Positions 53,748 through 64,000 of a stretch of DNA of 64,000 nt are shown in pieces. The position numbers and the translations under genes are program-made. Every line of letters begins with the position of its first letter. Within the stretch, counting starts at the first letter, position 1. The notes below the pieces were generated by a model. The model ran no database searches, was not told the DNA's origin, and saw only the letters and a list, made by a program, of their open reading frames with translations. Source of the DNA: Leptospiraceae bacterium (GTDB lineage: Bacteria; Spirochaetota; Leptospiria; Leptospirales; Leptonemataceae). The stretch covers positions 160,001 through 224,000 of the forward strand of contig JAVJNR010000003.1 of assembly GCA_040217195.1 (NCBI GenBank), written 5' to 3'.

Positions 53748-54059
53748 ATGGGCTTGCGAACCCACCGTGATAAATACTACTTGCTGTTTTGTCTTTTGAT
53801 CCTTCTGGGACTCTACAGATATTATTTCCCGAATCACTCGGAAGAATCCCACATTCCACCTTCCGCAGAGTATAGCATAAACTTTCATAGAGAGGCAGAG
53901 TTCATTGTACCGCCAGGCCCTGCCCGATCGGTGAATGCCACGGGTCAGATGCGTGCACTATTAAGCGAAGAATTGAATCGCCAGGATTTGTACAATCGTT
54001 TCCCGGACAACAAATCTGCATCCGATTCCAGGAGTACGGAGTTTTTTGGATGCAATTAG
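53748..54059 (+). CDS. small hypothetical protein with one TM
   Basis: 103-aa ORF with YYLLFCLLILLGLY; overlaps the vWA start by 10 bp. Confidence 0.4.
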   Translation: MGLRTHRDKYYLLFCLLILLGLYRYYFPNHSEESHIPPSAEYSINFHREAEFIVPPGPARSVNATGQMRALLSEELNRQDLYNRFPDNKSASDSRSTEFFGCN

Positions 54060-56137
54060 TCAGTTGCCGAATCTTTAACCGGCTAATCTTATTAAAGCTC
54101 GTTCCAGTTGTTCTACTGCTACTCTCCAGTGCAATTCTGGCCAAACCGGACAAATCTAGAAGTAAAGGTCATTTCGTATCGGTTGTGCTTGTTCTGGACA
54201 TTTCCGGCTCCATGTCTGTAAACGATCCTGATCGACTGAGCTGGGACGCAGCAAATCTAATGGCGAATCTTCTGAGCCAGGGGGATGAAATTGGCCTGGT
54301 GCTTTTTAATCATGAAGTAGTAAGCACTCTTGGTCCTCTGCGAATTGGCCAGGATAATATCAGTAGAGATACAATCAAAGAAAGGCTTTCCGGGCGATAC
54401 AATGGCGGTACGGATATTCTTGGTGCCGTAAACAAAGGCATGGATATGCTGGGAAATGTACAATCGTCGCCCAGACGAAAGAAGGCAATACTGGTTCTCA
54501 CGGACGGCGCAGATCAGAGCTCACTGGACTCCTATAGAGCTGCCCATCTAAGATCTCTGAACCAGGGAATTACGATTTTTCCTGTTGCAATGGGAACCGA
54601 GCCCAGCAAAGAAAAATTGCTGGCACTTACCGACGAATCAGAACTATTGCAGGCCAATCAGCCCCAGGAATTACCGGATACATTTTCTATTATCTACGCT
54701 CGCCTATTCGACTCCATGATTTCGCGACCGCAGGGCACTGGAACAGGCTTTGTTTTTCAGGCCCATCCGCTTACCGCTGAAATGAACCTCATCCTTTCGG
54801 ACGATGATCCAGGCAGCTTGAACTTTACCGTTTATGATCCAGCTGGAAAGGCCCTGTCGAGCAACGAGGCCAGACACGGAAAGAAGTTCATTTCGCTTCA
54901 GATCGTTTCACCCACTCCGGGAGAGTGGAAAGTTCAAACCACAAGAATCCCGGACAATATGAGTTTGCTCCAGATTGCAGACCTGAAGCTAGAAGTGAAA
55001 TGGGGAGATGTTAGCCCACTGAAGAAAACAATAACCGTGGACCAGGCCAGATTGCTTACAGAAAACGGCACTCGGATCCTGGACGAAGAGCGGTACTATC
55101 GAGGCACAAGGTTCGAACTGGTGGTGCGGGGCCCTGGTGGAGAGAAAACATATGAACTAAGAGACGATGGTCAGGGAGCGGATCGCCAGGCCAACGATCG
55201 GATTTTTGCAGGCACTGGAAAGATCGATGGAATTGGCCAGTACAGCTATTATGTAAGAGTTCACTTTCCTGTCTTTAAACCCACCTCCGAAAGGTACTTT
55301 CTGGCCCTCCAGGAGAAGGTCTGGTTCAGGCTAAAATGGCAAACCAATGCAGCCCCGGCGGTACAGCAGGGACAGATCCTGGGTCTGCCCATTCAAATAA
55401 CAGAAAACAAACCGGCCGATCCAGAGGGAGAAAACATCCATGTTCGACTACATCCAAAATCTGGGCCCGACTGGAACTCTATTGAGCTATTAAATACGGA
55501 ACTAAATGTTAAAGAACGTTCTCCGGGAACCGTGCGAATTCGTCCGGATTATTACCGCGGCATAGATCTTGGATTGTTTAGCGCAACACCCGGTACCTAC
55601 GAAGGCGAACTGGAGTTTTTCTATCCGGGTCAGGATAGCGTTCGCCTGCCAGTCAAATTCGAAGTAAGATCGGCCCCTTTTCTTGATAAATTGCTGGGAG
55701 CCCTTATATTCTGGTCTTGCATTGCGCTGGTGATCGCAATTCTAATGGGACTGCGAAAGGCTGTGTGGTTTCCAAGAAAAATGAGAATCTTCCTTTGGGA
55801 TGAACATGGACAGAGAAAGCGCAGCAGCGATATCCTGCCCCGAAGCAAGTGGCTCTATGGAAAAAGCAGCCTTCAAATTGGCTCAGCCACTCTGTTCTCC
55901 CGAGGACATAAAAGCACCAATCATGATCTATATTACGAGGAAGACGGTATCCGGCAGAGAGAGCCGGTAGGAAAGCACCAAATCATACTCACACCCGCCG
56001 GCGGTTATGTGGTGGTGAGCGATGGTTACTTGAGCTTTGATCAGGAAATGAATCTGGGAGATCAAATCGGCCGGACTTATCGGCGAAGCCCCCTATCCCC
56101 GGAAGAAGAAGTCAGAATAATAGAAAGCGAATTCTAA
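54050..56137 (+). CDS. exported vWA (MIDAS) protein with C-terminal TM and cytoplasmic tail
   Basis: Signal peptide; DISGSMS, GGTD, LTDG MIDAS residues; LRDDG...D...ND.IF (choice-of-anchor X-like); TM LLGALIFWSCIALVIAILMGL. Confidence 0.85.
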   Translation: MQLVSCRIFNRLILLKLVPVVLLLLSSAILAKPDKSRSKGHFVSVVLVLDISGSMSVNDPDRLSWDAANLMANLLSQGDEIGLVLFNHEVVSTLGPLRIGQDNISRDTIKERLSGRYNGGTDILGAVNKGMDMLGNVQSSPRRKKAILVLTDGADQSSLDSYRAAHLRSLNQGITIFPVAMGTEPSKEKLLALTDESELLQANQPQELPDTFSIIYARLFDSMISRPQGTGTGFVFQAHPLTAEMNLILSDDDPGSLNFTVYDPAGKALSSNEARHGKKFISLQIVSPTPGEWKVQTTRIPDNMSLLQIADLKLEVKWGDVSPLKKTITVDQARLLTENGTRILDEERYYRGTRFELVVRGPGGEKTYELRDDGQGADRQANDRIFAGTGKIDGIGQYSYYVRVHFPVFKPTSERYFLALQEKVWFRLKWQTNAAPAVQQGQILGLPIQITENKPADPEGENIHVRLHPKSGPDWNSIELLNTELNVKERSPGTVRIRPDYYRGIDLGLFSATPGTYEGELEFFYPGQDSVRLPVKFEVRSAPFLDKLLGALIFWSCIALVIAILMGLRKAVWFPRKMRIFLWDEHGQRKRSSDILPRSKWLYGKSSLQIGSATLFSRGHKSTNHDLYYEEDGIRQREPVGKHQIILTPAGGYVVVSDGYLSFDQEMNLGDQIGRTYRRSPLSPEEEVRIIESEF

Positions 56138-56214
56138 GAAGCTTTCCATTCAGGACCTTGCTCGCATGGAAACACTGGATGCAATAATTGGATTCGCATA
56201 ACATTGAGGAAGAA

Positions 56215-59200
56215 ATGGCAAAAGAAATCGAAAGTTTTACACCACATTTAGTACTGGGAATTGGAGGAACCGGAAGTCGAGTGCTGCAGCGACTTATGGA
56301 GCTCACCTCAGCGCAGAAAGACCGAGTCAAGGCACTGCAAAAAAACAGGCTTCTAAATTTTGTTGCTATTGATACGGACGTAAACGATCTTCAGAAGCTT
56401 GGATTGCCGCGGCAGAATCAAATTCTCATCTCTGAAGGTGTGAATATGCCGGTCTACGCTGGCACCCGAAAAAGAGAAGATGAGTTAAGACCACTGGATG
56501 AACGTACTTTTCGCTGGTTTCCTCCCAGAGATGAGGTGGGCACATCGTTTGAAACACATAACCTGGGAAACGGGGCTGGCCAAATTCGATTCTACTCCAG
56601 GATCGGATGGGAATATACATGCCAGAATATGAATCTGGAAAGCCAGTTTGAAAACCTGCTGGGTAGCCTGATCAGTATCGACGTGAACAAGACTGTTCTT
56701 TCCGAAAGTCCAACCATTATTGCAACCATAGTTGGATCCATTGCAGGAGGAACCGGCTCAGGGGTCTTCTTACAGGTCGCCGCCATGCTGAAAGATATCG
56801 CGGCCAGGAAATTGAAAAGACAGCTTCTGGTCAAAGGCTACTTCTTTACTGCTGATATCTATACGCGGGGAGGCCTACTGCCAGAAGAGCAGCATGATGA
56901 CATAAAGGCCAATACCTATGCCTGCCTGAAAGATCTAAATGCTTTTAATCGATTACTAACTCGCATCAATCGACCAATTCTGTTCGATGAAGGGGACCTG
57001 GATTTTATCTGGAACCCAAGGGATGGTCGCCGGGATCTGAGCACAATTATGTACCGTCCATACGATATGGTGTATATTGTAGATGCTACAAATAGCACCG
57101 GCACATTACCGGTGGGACCCGGCATAGAGTTTCGCGCCTATGAGTCCATGCTTGCTGATGCACTTTACTGCTCCATATTCACTCCAATTTCATCCAAAGC
57201 GCTGAGCATAGAGAACAATGAAATAATAAACAAGATTGCTGCAGAACAATCCGGAGATGACTTCCCCGGGTATGGAGCGGTAGGTGCTGCAAGAGTCGTA
57301 TTTCCGGTGGATGATGTTTCAGATTTCCTTAGCTACAAGTATTGTCAGAGTATTCTGAGTTCCCAGTGGGCACGACTGGATCGAAGCCATCAGGAAAACC
57401 TGGTGGAATTCAATCGAGCCCAGGACCAGGGACGGTATAACGTCAAGATGCCTGAAAGACATCAGGACTTTATTCGAGACTTTGAATCCGAAGTGGCCCG
57501 GGGCGATGAAGCGGATCCCTCAATCGTAGCCGCATCCAACCATTACAAATATCTCACAGGTACGGAGCATTCCGGAGGTATACCTCATGGCGCTGATCTA
57601 AAATCCGTTCTGGAGCAATCCGCATTTGTTCGCGCCCTGGACGAAGAAATAGAACATCGAATCCTGGGGCATTTCCATACGGACAGTCATAACGTAATTT
57701 CTGAAAAGGGATTCTCCAGAACCATGATTCGAGATTACAATACTGTGGGTATCCTGCAACAGGACCGAAATCATCAGGTAGAATATTTGCGAGGACTGTT
57801 GCACAACAATGATCGCCACCTAAATGCAATCAAGCAGACGATACGCGACCTTGAAGCCACCCTGGCCCGCCAAATAGTGAGAGACTGTCTAGATGATGAT
57901 GCCTCCGCGAGAACTTCTGAGCGAATGGATCAGCTCAAAGATTATCAGCTTATTCGATGGCTAACTCTCGACCCCACAAAGAAGGGGCATAACATATTCT
58001 TTATACGATACTTCCTTTCCAGAGAACTGGAAAGTCTGCGAGCGGCACTGGAATCCCTGAAGAAAGAACGACATTCCCTGGAAAGAAAGTTTCAACGAAA
58101 TTCTAGAGCCTTTGATGATCCATCGACCGAAGACATTGTAGAAACTCCACTCCAGTTGCTGGAACAGAACATGGCCGGCTCCGGCATCAATGGAGTGATG
58201 CAGAAATTTCATGATGTGGTTACTTTTCGAAATAACTTTGTTCATGGTATGGTTTCGGGTACCGGAGAATGGAGTCAGGATCTGGACACCTGGATGAAGG
58301 ATAGATTGCGTCTGGAGCTAGAAGCGTTTGCCGTTGATATAAAAATGCAGGTTTATGAAGCTCTGTTCAAGCGCCTGGGGTTTGATCAACTGGGAAGTCA
58401 GGGTGGATTGCTGGATGTAGTCCACAGGCTGGCAGATACAATCATTTCAATCAGCGAATTATTCGAACGAAATGTTGAAAACAAAAGACAACGAAATTTA
58501 CAGGGCGGTAAGCTTGCAGGCGCTGTTCTTGTACATTGTCAGCCAGAGTCCAAAGATTACATATGGAAATCTGTGGGCGGAGAATTGAGAAGTGCCAATT
58601 CCGTTCTCGTGGATACTTACCAGGGATTGATCAACTTCTGCGAGACTACCTGGAGAGATATTCAAAGCATTTCCGCACCCAGCCCGGAAGTTGAAAAGCA
58701 AAGGATTTCTTCTATCTATCAGAGATCTTTCCGATTGAATGCATATGACGAAACTGATCCGGGACCAGTATTTGAAAAGTTAATCCAGCCATCCAGGAAA
58801 TTTCTGGAGGCAGCCTTGCGAAAGAAATACAATGTATTGAGCGCCATGCTGGAAGAGGCAGAATATGTGAGGGGAGTTTCCTTTGCAGACACCGATGAGA
58901 AAATGCAGTACCTGGCCGAGCAACTGGGCATAGCGTTTTCCAATGCTGCACCGTTTACGAATGTGTTCAAGGATGCAACTCCCATAAATGTTATCGCATA
59001 CAATCATGGGCTAATTGATAGCGGAATGCATGAAATTCTGGAGAAGTTTGGTGGAGATCGCAGTGTTTCGCAGGGAGGAAGTATCGATGATCCCAATGTG
59101 GTCATCTTCTACCGTACAATGGTAGGCCAGAAGATGTCTGAATTCAGAAATGTATTGGAGTTCCGACGATACTATGTGGATTCAGTGATCAATCGACATA

Positions 59201-59739
59201 TCCATCGTGAATGGCCGGATCTCTTGCCAGAGCTTTCCGATGAAATTGAGCTGGAGCATTTTAAAACCTTCGCTTTCTGCGAAGCGGCCGGTATCATTCA
59301 ATGTGCAGATGCGGATCGCGGAGAATATCAGTATGATCTTGCATTCAGGGACCCGTCCCATCAGGAATGGCGGCCTCTGGGCTCAAGCTACCGTAATTCA
59401 CTCGTTGGTCTGAGGCACATGATTCGAAAGCACTCCGAATTTCGTAATGCTATCTCAGACCAGGAAAGCAAAGAACGATCCAGGTATGATCGCCGTTCCA
59501 GTTTTGACTTCGCAGATAAACTATTCCATCTAATGGATAGCTTTCAGTCCAGAGCCAGCAGCATCAAAGATGGTCTGGATGATAAGAGCATTACGCCGCA
59601 TATCCTGGAGAGACTGGCCGAGGCCTGTTCGGAAATTGTGGTTGAGATGGTTTCTGGCACTGAAGTCGAATTCCAGGAGGCCAGAAAGGGAGCCAGAGAG
59701 CGAAAACCTGGAAATGGATCTCAAGTAGTCGGACGATAG
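56215..59739 (+). CDS. large FtsZ/tubulin-like GTPase (Tubulin_2 / FtsZl1 type)
   Basis: LGIGGTG, AIDTD, GAGQIR, GSIAGGTGSG, ANTYACLKDL; long helical/coiled-coil C-terminus. GAGGA RBS before the ATG at 56215. Confidence 0.9.
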   Translation: MAKEIESFTPHLVLGIGGTGSRVLQRLMELTSAQKDRVKALQKNRLLNFVAIDTDVNDLQKLGLPRQNQILISEGVNMPVYAGTRKREDELRPLDERTFRWFPPRDEVGTSFETHNLGNGAGQIRFYSRIGWEYTCQNMNLESQFENLLGSLISIDVNKTVLSESPTIIATIVGSIAGGTGSGVFLQVAAMLKDIAARKLKRQLLVKGYFFTADIYTRGGLLPEEQHDDIKANTYACLKDLNAFNRLLTRINRPILFDEGDLDFIWNPRDGRRDLSTIMYRPYDMVYIVDATNSTGTLPVGPGIEFRAYESMLADALYCSIFTPISSKALSIENNEIINKIAAEQSGDDFPGYGAVGAARVVFPVDDVSDFLSYKYCQSILSSQWARLDRSHQENLVEFNRAQDQGRYNVKMPERHQDFIRDFESEVARGDEADPSIVAASNHYKYLTGTEHSGGIPHGADLKSVLEQSAFVRALDEEIEHRILGHFHTDSHNVISEKGFSRTMIRDYNTVGILQQDRNHQVEYLRGLLHNNDRHLNAIKQTIRDLEATLARQIVRDCLDDDASARTSERMDQLKDYQLIRWLTLDPTKKGHNIFFIRYFLSRELESLRAALESLKKERHSLERKFQRNSRAFDDPSTEDIVETPLQLLEQNMAGSGINGVMQKFHDVVTFRNNFVHGMVSGTGEWSQDLDTWMKDRLRLELEAFAVDIKMQVYEALFKRLGFDQLGSQGGLLDVVHRLADTIISISELFERNVENKRQRNLQGGKLAGAVLVHCQPESKDYIWKSVGGELRSANSVLVDTYQGLINFCETTWRDIQSISAPSPEVEKQRISSIYQRSFRLNAYDETDPGPVFEKLIQPSRKFLEAALRKKYNVLSAMLEEAEYVRGVSFADTDEKMQYLAEQLGIAFSNAAPFTNVFKDATPINVIAYNHGLIDSGMHEILEKFGGDRSVSQGGSIDDPNVVIFYRTMVGQKMSEFRNVLEFRRYYVDSVINRHIHREWPDLLPELSDEIELEHFKTFAFCEAAGIIQCADADRGEYQYDLAFRDPSHQEWRPLGSSYRNSLVGLRHMIRKHSEFRNAISDQESKERSRYDRRSSFDFADKLFHLMDSFQSRASSIKDGLDDKSITPHILERLAEACSEIVVEMVSGTEVEFQEARKGARERKPGNGSQVVGR

Positions 59740-59740
59740 G

Positions 59741-62404
59741 ATGGCTTCCAAGGTTTCCAGCCTGGTACTTCAGATTGGCCATCAAATCCAGCGGTTGAAC
59801 GAAGACCTGCAGGATGAATTGTCAACCGAAGACCGAATTCGATTTCTGCGAGCAGAATTAAGGTCTTTGAATAAGGGGCAGACAATCCTGCGCCTGTCCG
59901 GTAATAGTGATTCCGGAGTTCATGAGGTGGACCCTGCAAACCAGGCTGGGATTTATCAGGAGCAACCGCTCTTAGATCCTATCTATACATGCCTACTGGA
60001 TGAGATTCAGGCATTGCTGCAATTCGAGCCAGGCGATCATATGAATCGTCAGGTCCGAATCATTGTGCATGGCTCATTAACGGCTGCAGAAGACCGTAGC
60101 TGTTTTCTGAAGATTCTGCAATACCTGGCAGTGGTTCTCAAGAGCTTTTCTGCAAATGTCATTCGTCTGGTTCCGGTCATTCCATTCGCCAGCCGAAACG
60201 ATGCACAATTTTTCGCAAACCTGAGAGCCCTGGATGAAAGGTTCCGGGAAATGGAGCAAATCTACAGGTATGGCTCTGCGACTCCACCGGAGCTCCATGG
60301 TAGCCATTATCCACCCTATTTAAAGAGAGTAATTCTGATCTCGGATGACCTGGGGGGTCAGATCATGAACTCTGATGAACAGTCTTCGCTCTTATTCTTA
60401 ACTCTGCGACTTCTATGCGAACCGGGTGGATTCGTAAACAGATATAGAATCTATAGAGATGATGATACCCAATCAGATAGTCTGGAGAAATGGCTTCAGG
60501 TGGACGATCTTCTGAGTCCTGTGGGTGAAGTAGTTGATCCCTGGTCCGGTCCATATAGCTCTATTGGTTTTATTCACTATGGCATAGATGTAAAAAGAAT
60601 TAATCGAGTGATGAAGCTCTACCTGTATCATCTACTTATTGAAAAGCTGGCCCAGCCCGAGCTCATAGAAGGAGAATACGTTTTTCAGAATGCGGACAAT
60701 GAACTAGAACAATTAATACTGCGCCAAATGCAGGGTCAGGTCCATCCGGGTAGCCTGGAAATCATGAACCAGGAGGAATGTAGCGAAGCCTGGAACGAGC
60801 TGGTCCGAATTCAGAGCGTTAGCAAAGAATCGAAAAAGCTTTCCCTGGACCAGCCTGCATTGAAAGAGCTTGCCCGAAGCCTGCGAAAAGCCGGCCAGAA
60901 TGAACAAAAAGGATCCACACAATCAGATGTTATTGCTGTAATCGATGACCTCCAATCCACACTGGACCGACAGCTACCAGACTATGAGGATCTGGGTGCC
61001 CAGTTCTCAGATCTTTATCGGCGTGTGGCCCGGATTGTAGATCAGAAGGCTGTGCATTTTGCCAGTCAGATCAAAAGAAGATTCAGCCTGGTTGTGGAAT
61101 CTATTGCAAATTATTCTGAAGTGAATGAATCCGATTCTACATTGCATCAGGCAAGGCAGCTTAGCGAATATTTCAAGGAAAGCAGTGAAAAATCCATTCT
61201 CTCTCGTTGGCGCGGTCTGTCTTATGTATTGCAAAGAGCTTACAGAGAGCTTGTGACCCATCGCCAGAACATTCATCATCTTAGACTGACTCGCAGCAGA
61301 CTGGCCCCGGTGGAACACCTGCAGGAATCCGAGAATGGATTTCGCAGTAAATTGCAGGAAATTCGAAAAAGAGCCCTGAAACTCGGAAATGCCAGGTTCA
61401 GCCTGCTAATACCAGCTCTTCTGGGAACAATACTTGGTCTGACTGGATTAATTATACATTCCTCCCCTTTCGCTCCAGTAAGCGTTAGACTACCTTTTCA
61501 TCTACTTCATACAGCCATTGATCTAATTCTTCCAGATTCCATGCGAAATGCCACATTCTTCGCAGGACAGGCATCCCTCACTCTACCTGGAGCAATCTTC
61601 TGGGGCATTTTCATAGGAGCTGGTTTTCTATCCGCATACCTGCTTCGTCGCCATCAGTCCAGCAAGGCAACCCATCTCCAGGAGGAAGTAAATGAAGCCC
61701 TGAATTCCTATCTACAATCTCTGAAGATTCGGCCGGACCAGATCTTAGAGTCTCAGGCCTATTTCCGAGAAGGAAGATTTCTGCAGGAATATGCCAACCT
61801 CATTCGCCGCACACTTTTTCATTTTCATTCCTATGATCATGCATCCGGACAGGTGGCTCGCAGAATTCGACATGAATTGTTAATTCGTGGAGCCAGGCTA
61901 GAAGGAAAGAAGCTTCGCTTTGATGCAAACCATTTGCGACAGACCACAATAGAGTCCGACATGGTGGATCGATTCGAAATCAGTCTGCTCAAATCCCGGG
62001 AACTGGAAAGAATGGCAGACCGAATTCTGGAAAGGGATTTAACCGGAGAACTTCTGGCCGCACTTCAGGTCTTTTCCTGCGAAGAAAACCAGGAAGATAT
62101 AATGGATCGCAAATTGGATGAGTTGCTGCTACGCGATCTACCGCTCCATGAAGTTGAACGGATAATTTCACAACATGTAGAAGATTCAGCTTCCGAGAGC
62201 CTAAAGCAGGCAGCCACAGGCAAGAGACCCTTCTGGGCTCTATCTCTGAATCCAGAAAACTACACTGGCGGCGCTTTTGTGCGCAAAACCTTTCAGGGGG
62301 ACCGCAATTTCGGTGAAATGTTTCATCTGTTCTATGTTCGGCGAGGATTCTCCCTGGAAGAACTGGAACGGACCATCCGCTCCGCAAGTCAGGAGGCGCT
62401 TTGA
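59741..62404 (+). CDS. membrane protein with probable degenerate tubulin-like N-terminal domain, coiled coils and 2 TMs
   Basis: Motif order parallels the upstream GTPase; TMs FSLLIPALLGTILGLTGLII and LPGAIFWGIFIGAGFLSAYLL. Confidence 0.7.
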   Translation: MASKVSSLVLQIGHQIQRLNEDLQDELSTEDRIRFLRAELRSLNKGQTILRLSGNSDSGVHEVDPANQAGIYQEQPLLDPIYTCLLDEIQALLQFEPGDHMNRQVRIIVHGSLTAAEDRSCFLKILQYLAVVLKSFSANVIRLVPVIPFASRNDAQFFANLRALDERFREMEQIYRYGSATPPELHGSHYPPYLKRVILISDDLGGQIMNSDEQSSLLFLTLRLLCEPGGFVNRYRIYRDDDTQSDSLEKWLQVDDLLSPVGEVVDPWSGPYSSIGFIHYGIDVKRINRVMKLYLYHLLIEKLAQPELIEGEYVFQNADNELEQLILRQMQGQVHPGSLEIMNQEECSEAWNELVRIQSVSKESKKLSLDQPALKELARSLRKAGQNEQKGSTQSDVIAVIDDLQSTLDRQLPDYEDLGAQFSDLYRRVARIVDQKAVHFASQIKRRFSLVVESIANYSEVNESDSTLHQARQLSEYFKESSEKSILSRWRGLSYVLQRAYRELVTHRQNIHHLRLTRSRLAPVEHLQESENGFRSKLQEIRKRALKLGNARFSLLIPALLGTILGLTGLIIHSSPFAPVSVRLPFHLLHTAIDLILPDSMRNATFFAGQASLTLPGAIFWGIFIGAGFLSAYLLRRHQSSKATHLQEEVNEALNSYLQSLKIRPDQILESQAYFREGRFLQEYANLIRRTLFHFHSYDHASGQVARRIRHELLIRGARLEGKKLRFDANHLRQTTIESDMVDRFEISLLKSRELERMADRILERDLTGELLAALQVFSCEENQEDIMDRKLDELLLRDLPLHEVERIISQHVEDSASESLKQAATGKRPFWALSLNPENYTGGAFVRKTFQGDRNFGEMFHLFYVRRGFSLEELERTIRSASQEAL

Positions 62405-64000
62405 TGGGTTTTCTGGACGGCATCCTTTCGCTTGCCTATTTCTTTTTTGTATTGTTTCTACTGATGCATGGTATTCAGAATCTCAAAGAGTGCTATGCCG
62501 CTCTTAAGAGATATCGCTCGGGCAAGAAAGTACAATATGAAAAATCCCTCCAGCACCTGGCTCCCGGTGCGGGCGCTGTATTTGCTGGAATCCTTACTTT
62601 CTTTATTCTCTCTGTACCTGCACTGATAGAAACATTGTTCTATGCAGACAGCAATTCCATTCTATTTCGCACGGCAACTGCTCTGGCCTTTGAATATGAA
62701 TTACTGGGAAGCATTTTCTCGGCTGCAGGCGCTCCGGCCACTCCCGATGCCGTAGCTCAGATCATTCTGGACATTATTCCTGTCCATTTCTGGCAGCTAA
62801 TTCTCTTTCTCATCGGATATTTCGCATATCGAATTCTAACCTCCCAATTCTCTCGCATGTTTCAAGAGCCATCCGCTTTGATGCGATCAAGGCTGCCCGT
62901 AGATTTTGAGAATTCAGATCCAGAAACTCCACCCGTACTTTCGCCCTATACTTCCTTTGTATCCGGATCCATTTTTTTCTTTATTGGTGCAGGTATGCTG
63001 CTATTCCCATCTGCAGAGATGCAGTATGAGATTATTAGCGGCCGCGACATGGGTGGCTTCCTCTCTGTAATTCACGATCTCCAGGCTTTCATTCTACTCA
63101 GCAGTCAGTCCAATCATCATGTATTTCAGAATTCACATATTGCCGATTTTTTGCCCTGCATTCTGGCGCTGGTAGGTATGGGTATTCTGGAATTCACCGC
63201 CAGAGGATTATCAGAAAAATCCCGGCCGCCCTATACCGGAAATCAATCTGGAATTCATCTGGCTTTTAAGCGAAATCAGTTCGATTTCCTGGAAGATTTG
63301 CAGAAGAAAATTGGTCAGGTGCAGCCGCTGTTCGAAAATAATCCAACGTCCGGCGGTCGTAGCCCGCGAATAGAAGAAATAGATAGGGGGGCGCTGAAAA
63401 GGACTGTAGCAGAAACTCATGAGGAGTATCGCTTTGAAACTCTGGAAACCGAAAATCCGTTCTGGAGCGATATTCTGGAAAGACTGAACGTTGATCGTCT
63501 GTACACAACTCAATGGGAAGTAATCCAGAAAACAGCCACCGGTCAGAAAGTAGTCCTTTCAATGGAACCTGGTTCGGGCAAAATGCTTTCTGTTTTTCTG
63601 TCTGCCATGTACCAGGTAGTGCAAAAATTTCAGTCCGTACTGATCCTGGTTCCAGATGATAGCATTGCCGATGAAATCAAAGCCAGGTATTATGCGAAAA
63701 TCCAGGATTTACACTGGATGCAGGGATTATCCTTGCAGATTCTTACAAGCGATGAGGACAGAAGAGACACCGGCCATGTAACTGCCCTGGCCATGCAGGA
63801 ACTGCCCAGCGAAAGGCAGCCAGACATTATTCTTGCAACTCCCGATAGGCTTCATGGACTATTGAAAACCAGAGCCAGAGCACGGGATTTTATTCAGAAT
63901 CTGGGATTTGTAGCCATTGTTGAGGGTTCTTTGCATGGACATGTTCAGTCTCTACATACAGCTATGGTGCTGCGAAGATTCTTCACCATGGTTCGTCTGG
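62404..64000 (+). CDS. multi-TM protein fused to a degenerate SF2 (Hrq1/MrfA-like) helicase domain, partial; absent from ORF track
   Basis: Hand translation from ATG 62404 (TGATG overlap) is open to the window end: about 5 TMs, then LYTTQ, EPGSGKM, LILVP, IILATPDRL, VAIVEGS, SLHTAMVLRRF. Confidence 0.8.
   Translation, partial: MGFLDGILSLAYFFFVLFLLMHGIQNLKECYAALKRYRSGKKVQYEKSLQHLAPGAGAVFAGILTFFILSVPALIETLFYADSNSILFRTATALAFEYELLGSIFSAAGAPATPDAVAQIILDIIPVHFWQLILFLIGYFAYRILTSQFSRMFQEPSALMRSRLPVDFENSDPETPPVLSPYTSFVSGSIFFFIGAGMLLFPSAEMQYEIISGRDMGGFLSVIHDLQAFILLSSQSNHHVFQNSHIADFLPCILALVGMGILEFTARGLSEKSRPPYTGNQSGIHLAFKRNQFDFLEDLQKKIGQVQPLFENNPTSGGRSPRIEEIDRGALKRTVAETHEEYRFETLETENPFWSDILERLNVDRLYTTQWEVIQKTATGQKVVLSMEPGSGKMLSVFLSAMYQVVQKFQSVLILVPDDSIADEIKARYYAKIQDLHWMQGLSLQILTSDEDRRDTGHVTALAMQELPSERQPDIILATPDRLHGLLKTRARARDFIQNLGFVAIVEGSLHGHVQSLHTAMVLRRFFTMVRL

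Follow-up and report, generated by a model that had tools for sequence, protein, structure and literature searches.

A membrane-hairpin protein in a Leptospiraceae vWA/FtsZl1 operon, with a probable Tubulin_2-type domain lacking the GTP loops

Operons in which a gene for a vWA protein is paired with one for FtsZl1 were described by Makarova and Koonin (2010; PMC2875224), who predicted that they specify a membrane-associated system. In the available text of that paper the accompanying partner families, B1–B9, are characterized only as "membrane-associated" or "low-complexity", and none is called tubulin-like; the loci named there include those of Corynebacterium glutamicum R and Clostridium kluyveri. 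The available sections of Kaur, Burroughs, Iyer and Aravind (2020; PMC7159879) describe tubulin-containing GAP1-N2 neighbourhoods, with two tubulin-domain genes in Firmicutes and one in Actinobacteria. Tubulin_2 proteins appear only as an outgroup in the accessible part of Santana-Molina et al. (2023). The operon type itself was catalogued in 2010 and 2020. The present analysis concerns the third gene of such an operon in a Leptospiraceae bacterium (contig JAVJNR010000003.1), lying within a stretch of 64,000 nucleotides that is referred to below as the window. This gene (59741..62404, + strand) had been pointed out in an earlier note on the DNA; it has an ATG start, encodes 887 amino acids and is called here the partner gene.

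The locus resembles the operons of PMC2875224, as portrayed in its available text, in that vWA and FtsZl1 genes stand side by side, with genes for membrane proteins of no recognisable domain coming next. It differs in that the third gene likely encodes a GTP-blind Tubulin_2-type domain, and in that the sequence family of this third protein is confined to one genus. With the GAP1-N2 neighbourhoods, as far as the available text of PMC7159879 depicts them, the locus shares the company of tubulin-domain proteins and vWA membrane proteins, and inactive enzyme domains are common there; unlike those neighbourhoods, it showed no match to any GTPase family of Pfam in the five proteins scanned (vWA, FtsZl1, partner, helicase-like and a 349-residue protein). 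Part of the general idea may already be in print, in the two tubulin genes that Kaur et al. (2020) report for Firmicutes. The reading preferred here, with a probability of roughly 0.6, is that the partner is a membrane-hairpin protein whose N-terminal domain of about 340 residues is likely of the Tubulin_2 type but highly diverged and devoid of GTP loops, and that this domain would dock on FtsZl1 and so tether, cap or seed FtsZl1 assemblies at the inner membrane.

In alpha/beta-tubulin, in BtubA/B heterodimers and with gamma-tubulin nucleators, a hydrolysing subunit is paired with a paralogue that is non-hydrolysing or specialised and has a capping or seeding role. The proposed partnership has the same pairing logic of an active and a specialised paralogue. 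The paralogues of the known systems are GTP-binding and soluble, whereas the partner, as known from its sequence, lacks both glycine loops and has a hairpin in the membrane. FtsA, ZipA and SepF are membrane tethers of FtsZ that are unrelated to FtsZ in fold. The predicted role of the partner is like theirs, namely to keep a polymer of the tubulin family at the inner membrane, but the tether would here be derived from tubulin itself.

The N-terminal domain (residues 1–340; 59741..60760) has no GTP loops, in agreement with the claim of the earlier note that the glycine-rich loops were lost. Glycine-loop patterns of the T1 and T4 types are absent from all 3 members of the partner family and present in 121 of 121 Tubulin_2 domains. 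Near the N-terminus, where the Tubulin_2 T1 loop follows the pattern G.GG.G, the partner reads LVLQIGHQIQ, and the stretch that aligns with T4 reads GSLTAAEDRS in place of a GGTGSG-type signature. The FtsZl1-type GTPase encoded immediately upstream retains both its T1 and T4 loops, and every invariant G-loop column of alignment A3 is present in it.

The earlier note would have given up the tubulin-like assignment if the predicted fold were not tubulin-like and profile similarity to Tubulin_2 were lacking. Such similarity was seen, at a moderate level and over about a quarter of the domain. A three-sequence profile of the N-terminal domain aligned by hhalign with a profile of 121 Tubulin_2 sequences at a score of 33.5 (P 4.9e-4, Prob 32%, 88 columns), with partner residues 88–176 on Tubulin_2 columns 123–217 and GSLTAAEDRS opposite SLAGGTGSG. 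This stretch (60002..60268), which would cover H3, S4, the former T4 loop, H4, S5 and H5, is the sole one with statistically supported Tubulin_2 similarity. Among 120 column shuffles none attained this score, among 120 block shuffles a single one did, and the reversed profile gave 15.8. The match is specific to Tubulin_2, as three unrelated profiles drawn from these same operons (vWA partners, the C-terminal part of FtsZl1 and the downstream family) scored only 16.0–19.7 against the domain (P 0.08–0.33). Used singly, each of the three orthologs gave the identical register, with P between 0.003 and 0.008.

Pairwise comparisons of the domain with the 121 Tubulin_2 members (40 shuffles each) gave a z above 3 in four cases and a median of 0.18. 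In Smith-Waterman alignments with two FtsZl1 proteins, P0015 and P0014, residues 86–161 scored 91 against 48–49 ± 7 for shuffled sequences (z 5.7–6.2; 0 of 300 shuffles reached the score). When a hidden Markov model (HMM) of the N-terminal domain was run against the 121 Tubulin_2 domains and 2416 decoys of matched length taken from the one genome, Tubulin_2 domains held the first two places and 11 of the first 20, 0.95 being expected, and 12 of the 13 Tubulin_2 matches within the top 30 span the T4 position. This length-matched ranking restates the profile result, because its Tubulin_2 matches are kin. It replaced an enrichment test on full-length proteins, which was dropped because several FtsZl1 matches lay outside the GTPase domain, making length and composition confounding factors.

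A different kind of comparison leads to the same family. In an ESM Atlas feature search with residues 1–340, 25 of 30 clusters carry PF13809 (best 0.93, 200 of 256 features). For the whole record of P0003, an ortholog with 70% identity, the count is 22 of 30, again with a score of 0.93 and about 200 shared features, and the remaining matches of both queries are unnamed or tubulin-like clusters. It is probable that the N-terminal domain of the partner is homologous to Tubulin_2-type domains and has decayed from that state. We infer that the tubulin fold extends over the whole domain.

The remainder of the protein is organized around the membrane hairpin. Hydrophobic segments at residues 552–574 (61394..61462; Kyte-Doolittle mean over 19 residues up to 2.18) and 612–635 (61574..61645; up to 1.79) bear out the two-helix transmembrane hairpin that the earlier note had placed at about 61400–61645. 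Lysine and arginine together account for 5 of the 15 residues before the hairpin, 2 of the 37 in its loop and 3 of the 15 after it. By the positive-inside rule this distribution predicts that both soluble parts are cytoplasmic. The middle region (residues 341–551; 60761..61393) is polar. The earlier suggestion of coiled coils did not hold up: a crude heptad scan, in which only residues 524–552 of this region stand out, found 5 windows against 3.4 ± 4.7 in shuffled sequences, and 58 of 200 shuffles reached that number. The C-terminal domain (residues 636–887; 61646..62401) is the best conserved part of the protein and matches no known family in Pfam or NCBIfam.

The partner gene is under purifying selection. 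Against its ortholog in a near-identical locus (L005), the proportions of nonsynonymous and synonymous differences (pN and pS) are 0.071 and 0.716 for the whole gene and 0.087 and 0.726 for the N-terminal domain; the C-terminal domain is 94.8% identical, with pN 0.033. These are raw proportions, since synonymous sites are saturated and distance-corrected dN/dS values are not usable. Relatives of the partner are confined to its own genus, comprising P0002 (87% identity), the fragment P0003 (70%) and a C-terminal fragment (78%). They occur in 3 of the 41 related genomes searched, the genome of the window included. Two further matches among 1.84 billion representatives, a TIR-NB-ARC-LRR protein and an immunoglobulin-repeat protein, were rejected as repeat artefacts. 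Because relatives exist only within the genus, every profile of the partner family is shallow.

The place that the gene occupies recurs in many phyla. Taking one genome per species, 79 loci with an FtsZl1 gene were collected, with at most 10 kb on each side. In 63 of these, the near-identical L005 being left out, at least 2.2 kb follows the FtsZl1 stop codon. An open reading frame (ORF) of at least 560 codons on the same strand, beginning between −60 and +400 nucleotides from that stop, is present in 61 of the 63, and in 59 of these 61 ORFs two hydrophobic segments, paired in the manner of a hairpin, lie past residue 350. The partner fits this layout, as it lies directly downstream of FtsZl1 on the same strand with its hairpin at residues 552–635 of 887, about two thirds of the way along. 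Upstream of FtsZl1 the other loci usually encode a protein of 700–790 residues that has a single hydrophobic segment at each end. The three-gene module is thus recurrent, occurring in Actinomycetota, Bacillota, Myxococcota, Pseudomonadota, Bacteroidota and Fusobacteriota as well as in this spirochaete family. No second ORF in any of the 79 loci matched the Tubulin_2 HMM at E ≤ 10.

Clustering of the 60 downstream proteins of 560–900 residues, with L005 and one ORF of 1738 residues excluded, placed 54 in a single sequence family and left six standing alone. The excluded ORF is in a Microbacterium locus (L011:13590-18806), where it follows FtsZl1 and contains five hydrophobic segments; it may be the partner fused to the next gene, or a product of read-through. 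In this lineage the constant hairpin partner of FtsZl1 has a form of its own, the gene studied here, which is by sequence a further lone form. Its equivalence to the other partners rests on position and architecture, because profile similarity to them is absent.

The Myxococcota partner is informative about what this slot can hold. This protein (L008; 770 residues) has a single relative, P0129, at 34% identity. A profile of the two places residues 7–53 on Tubulin_2 columns 3–50, which span S1, T1, H1 and S2, with Prob 91% and P 1e-6. The T1 loop of L008 reads GYGEMG where Tubulin_2 has GLGGTG. A second collinear piece sets residues 48–243 on columns 116–342 (Prob 41%, P 2.8e-4), and in a shuffle control the score was 37.0 against 14.5 ± 2.7 (n = 63). 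A degenerate Tubulin_2 domain therefore does occupy this exact slot elsewhere. The Myxococcota operon (L008:2580-18000) is larger and encodes, in order, a vWA-FHA protein, a phosphatase of the PP2C type, two proteins that Pfam does not match, FtsZl1, the hairpin partner and a protein of 899 residues with an MrfA-type zinc-binding domain (1.1e-4). Comparison of the 899-residue protein with the product of the fourth gene of the Leptospiraceae operon revealed no pairwise similarity.

The 54-member family (loci L009–L083, alignment A4) shows a modest structural resemblance to tubulins. Its strongly conserved motifs are MFTVII at the start, WNESG, NPFDF and LQAYRLY. None of the 54 proteins has glycine loops, and the family shows no sequence link to Tubulin_2 (P 0.15–0.42) and no profile link to the Myxococcota partner. 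A model of its N-terminal domain, built on an alignment of 50 sequences, is confident (predicted local distance difference test, pLDDT, 89.4; predicted template modelling score, pTM, 0.74). Foldseek with this model gave no clear match in the PDB. In a structural search of 48,161 PDB chains, ranks 1–10 all belong to the tubulin/FtsZ superfamily, at modest Z scores of 6.7–7.6: CetZ (7.6), OdinTubulin, Asgard tubulin and BtubA (7.4 each), alpha/beta-tubulin (7.2), FtsZ (7.0), PhuZ (6.9), gamma-tubulin and tubulin (6.8 each) and CetZ2 (6.7). These ten align over 146–166 residues at 3.5–5.0 Å, and the superfamily supplies 14 of the best 50 matches. The same family also sits in Actinobacteria among the loci collected here, a group to which PMC7159879, in its available text, gives a single tubulin gene.

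Several results weigh against the preferred reading. Pfam gives no match to the whole protein at E ≤ 1, nor to residues 1–340 or the ortholog P0003 at E ≤ 10; a scan of the genome with PF13809 at E ≤ 10 does not recover the partner; and the HMM of the 121 Tubulin_2 domains scores it at −3.4 bits, with a sole local alignment that sets residues 87–113 on the strand leading into the T4 loop. Searches of the partner in Pfam, PADLOC and NCBIfam returned no match, and its profile retrieved no PDB sequence at E ≤ 10. The hhalign probability is just 32%, and in a search of a whole library the accompanying P-value would lose its significance. Outside residues 88–176 nothing is significant, the second-best local alignment having P 0.16, so that about 90 of the 340 residues are supported, and the Tubulin_2 matches in the length-matched ranking are mutually related rather than independent. 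In pairwise comparison the domain matches the adjacent FtsZl1 protein only at chance level. An AlphaFold model of the domain from the three-sequence alignment is of low confidence (pLDDT 43.5, pTM 0.45). Foldseek with this model gave a best E of 0.0098 and a TM-score of 0.15, and fold searches with it carry no weight because of the low pLDDT. Finally, the partner shows no profile similarity to either of the other partner types (P 0.046–0.44 overall): for the 54-member family, hmmsearch gave −2.6 bits and hhalign gave P 0.046 with the whole protein and 0.25 with the N-terminal domain.

A rival view is that the N-terminal domain is an unrelated α/β domain of Rossmann-like type, that its match to Tubulin_2 is due to chance or to convergence of strand-loop-helix units, and that the protein is a lineage-specific membrane component of the operon. 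Two different methods, hhalign and the ESM Atlas search, nevertheless converge on one family that had been named in advance. The three control profiles yield nothing, many Tubulin_2 members match in one register, and the Myxococcota locus has a clear degenerate Tubulin_2 domain in the same slot. An unrelated domain is for these reasons considered unlikely.

The main functional rival accepts a tubulin-derived domain and gives the protein another task. The partner would be a two-helix membrane effector of a conflict, or defence, system, in which the hairpin damages or gates the membrane while the tubulin-derived domain simply senses FtsZl1 assembly or is released by it, with no role as anchor or cap. 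The available text of PMC7159879 places neighbourhoods with tubulin and vWA proteins among GTPase-centred conflict systems, and mentions that such systems include pore-forming effectors of two helices as well as enzyme domains that are inactive. The rapid divergence of the partner would fit as well: pN is 0.087 for its N-terminal domain and 0.011 for the GTPase domain of FtsZl1, a difference of about eightfold, and partners have diverged beyond recognition between lineages. A helicase-like gene, moreover, comes next in the operon. On the other side, PADLOC models match none of the first three genes (vWA, FtsZl1 and partner), no GTPase family was detected by Pfam in the scanned operon proteins, and no toxin-like domain was found. 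Since the slot is filled in 61 of 63 loci, the hairpin protein has the look of a structural subunit of the core more than that of a variable effector, and the effector explanation seems quite unlikely.

A very improbable third explanation, that the N-terminal domain arose by recent tandem duplication of the adjacent FtsZl1 gene and is now decaying in this genus, draws on adjacency and on motif parallels with the neighbouring protein, and is opposed by a similarity to that neighbour at chance level (z about 0.2) with the best scores falling to distant family members, by purifying selection on the gene in two species, and by occupation of the same slot in 61 of 63 other loci. The motif parallels had been the starting point of the earlier note. 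The eight strings that it quotes all occur, in collinear order, at residues 107, 155, 194 and 272 of the partner and 180, 241, 292 and 362 of the upstream protein. As parallels with the upstream GTPase itself they did not stand: BLASTP gave 16.5 bits (E 12) for the pair at T4, and Smith-Waterman and semi-global alignments gave z 0.04–0.23, scores reached by 115–139 of 300 shuffles. Of the four pairings, the first falls in a region that is upheld at the level of the family only. The other three turn up only when the hhalign alignment is extended greedily, at low confidence; this extension is collinear with them and has the second pairing shifted by about four residues. The idea of an ancient paralogue fits better than that of a recent duplicate, because the N-terminal domain is no closer to its neighbour than to other members of the family and because degenerate or tubulin-fold partners hold the same slot in other phyla. 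The observation made in the earlier note is thus partly confirmed and its interpretation partly supported.

If the partner is indeed a GTP-blind relative of tubulin, one can conjecture, as the earlier note did, that it acts as a membrane anchor, nucleator or cap. The vWA protein would expose its vWA domain outside the membrane and keep its tail inside, and FtsZl1 would assemble in the cytoplasm. The partner would be held in the membrane by its hairpin, its two domains lying inside, and its tubulin-type domain would bind the GTPase domain of FtsZl1 through a tubulin-like contact. By this contact the partner may tether, cap or seed the FtsZl1 assembly at the inner membrane. The outward-facing vWA protein and the partner could then jointly couple an external ligand, or the state of the envelope, to assembly of FtsZl1.

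The module begins with the gene for the vWA membrane protein (54050..56137, +; 695 residues), in which Pfam VWA matches residues 45–197 at 2.6e-11. The ortholog of this protein in L005 has hydrophobic segments at residues 9–32 and 543–576, toward the N- and C-termini. The FtsZl1-type gene (56188..59739, +; 1183 residues) follows on the same strand after 50 nucleotides, so that the two consecutive genes form a predicted vWA/FtsZl1 operon; Tubulin_2 (PF13809) matches residues 21–389 of its product at 3.2e-47. The partner gene starts 1 nucleotide past the TAG stop of FtsZl1. The fourth gene (62401..64000, +) continues beyond the window to a position equivalent to 65961 (L084:1-3558) and encodes 1186 residues, in which several membrane helices at the N-terminus are joined to a DEAD-like helicase core (1e-09 and 3.3e-09 with Pfam DEAD). 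At its junction with the partner gene an AGGAGG is followed by seven bases and then by an ATG that shares its A with the end of the partner TGA. This ATG, at 62404, is likely the true start of the fourth gene. All four genes are thus on the + strand and nearly gapless.

Two small ORFs flank this set. One of 103 codons at 53748-54059, with a hydrophobic N-terminus, ends 10 nucleotides into the start region of the vWA gene and may encode a small membrane protein of the operon. The other, of 349 codons, overlaps the end of the fourth gene by 4 nucleotides and has no Pfam match of any kind. A second Tubulin_2 gene is present in the same genome (contig C5:311922-315749; 1275 residues; PF13809 matches of 9.5e-26 and 4.9e-14). 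It has a gene for a 300-residue membrane protein upstream and no hairpin partner downstream.

It is tempting to extend the proposal to the module as a whole. Conceivably, all vWA-FtsZl1 modules, in at least seven phyla, contain an obligate pair of active and inactive tubulins, in which the FtsZl1 GTPase is matched with a hairpin pseudo-tubulin that arose from one ancient duplicate. This duplicate would then survive in three states of decay, one in the gene studied here, one in the Myxococcota type and one in the 54-member family, and the pair would be a membrane-fixed counterpart of the seeding logic of alpha/beta- or gamma-tubulin, wired to an extracellular vWA receptor. This extension is tentative, and we hold it doubtful.

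Within the tubulin/FtsZ superfamily no branch is more diverged than FtsZl1, which is present in many phyla; full-text literature searches turned up no bench study of FtsZl1 or of this module. A GTP-blind tubulin relative as partner, if this is what the third gene encodes, would account for the listing of such proteins in 2010 as having no recognisable domain. It would provide a concrete, testable mechanism, namely a heterotypic tubulin contact at the membrane, together with a defined pair of domains for co-expression. If true, it would also be a new case in which a pseudo-enzyme paralogue controls a cytoskeletal polymer.

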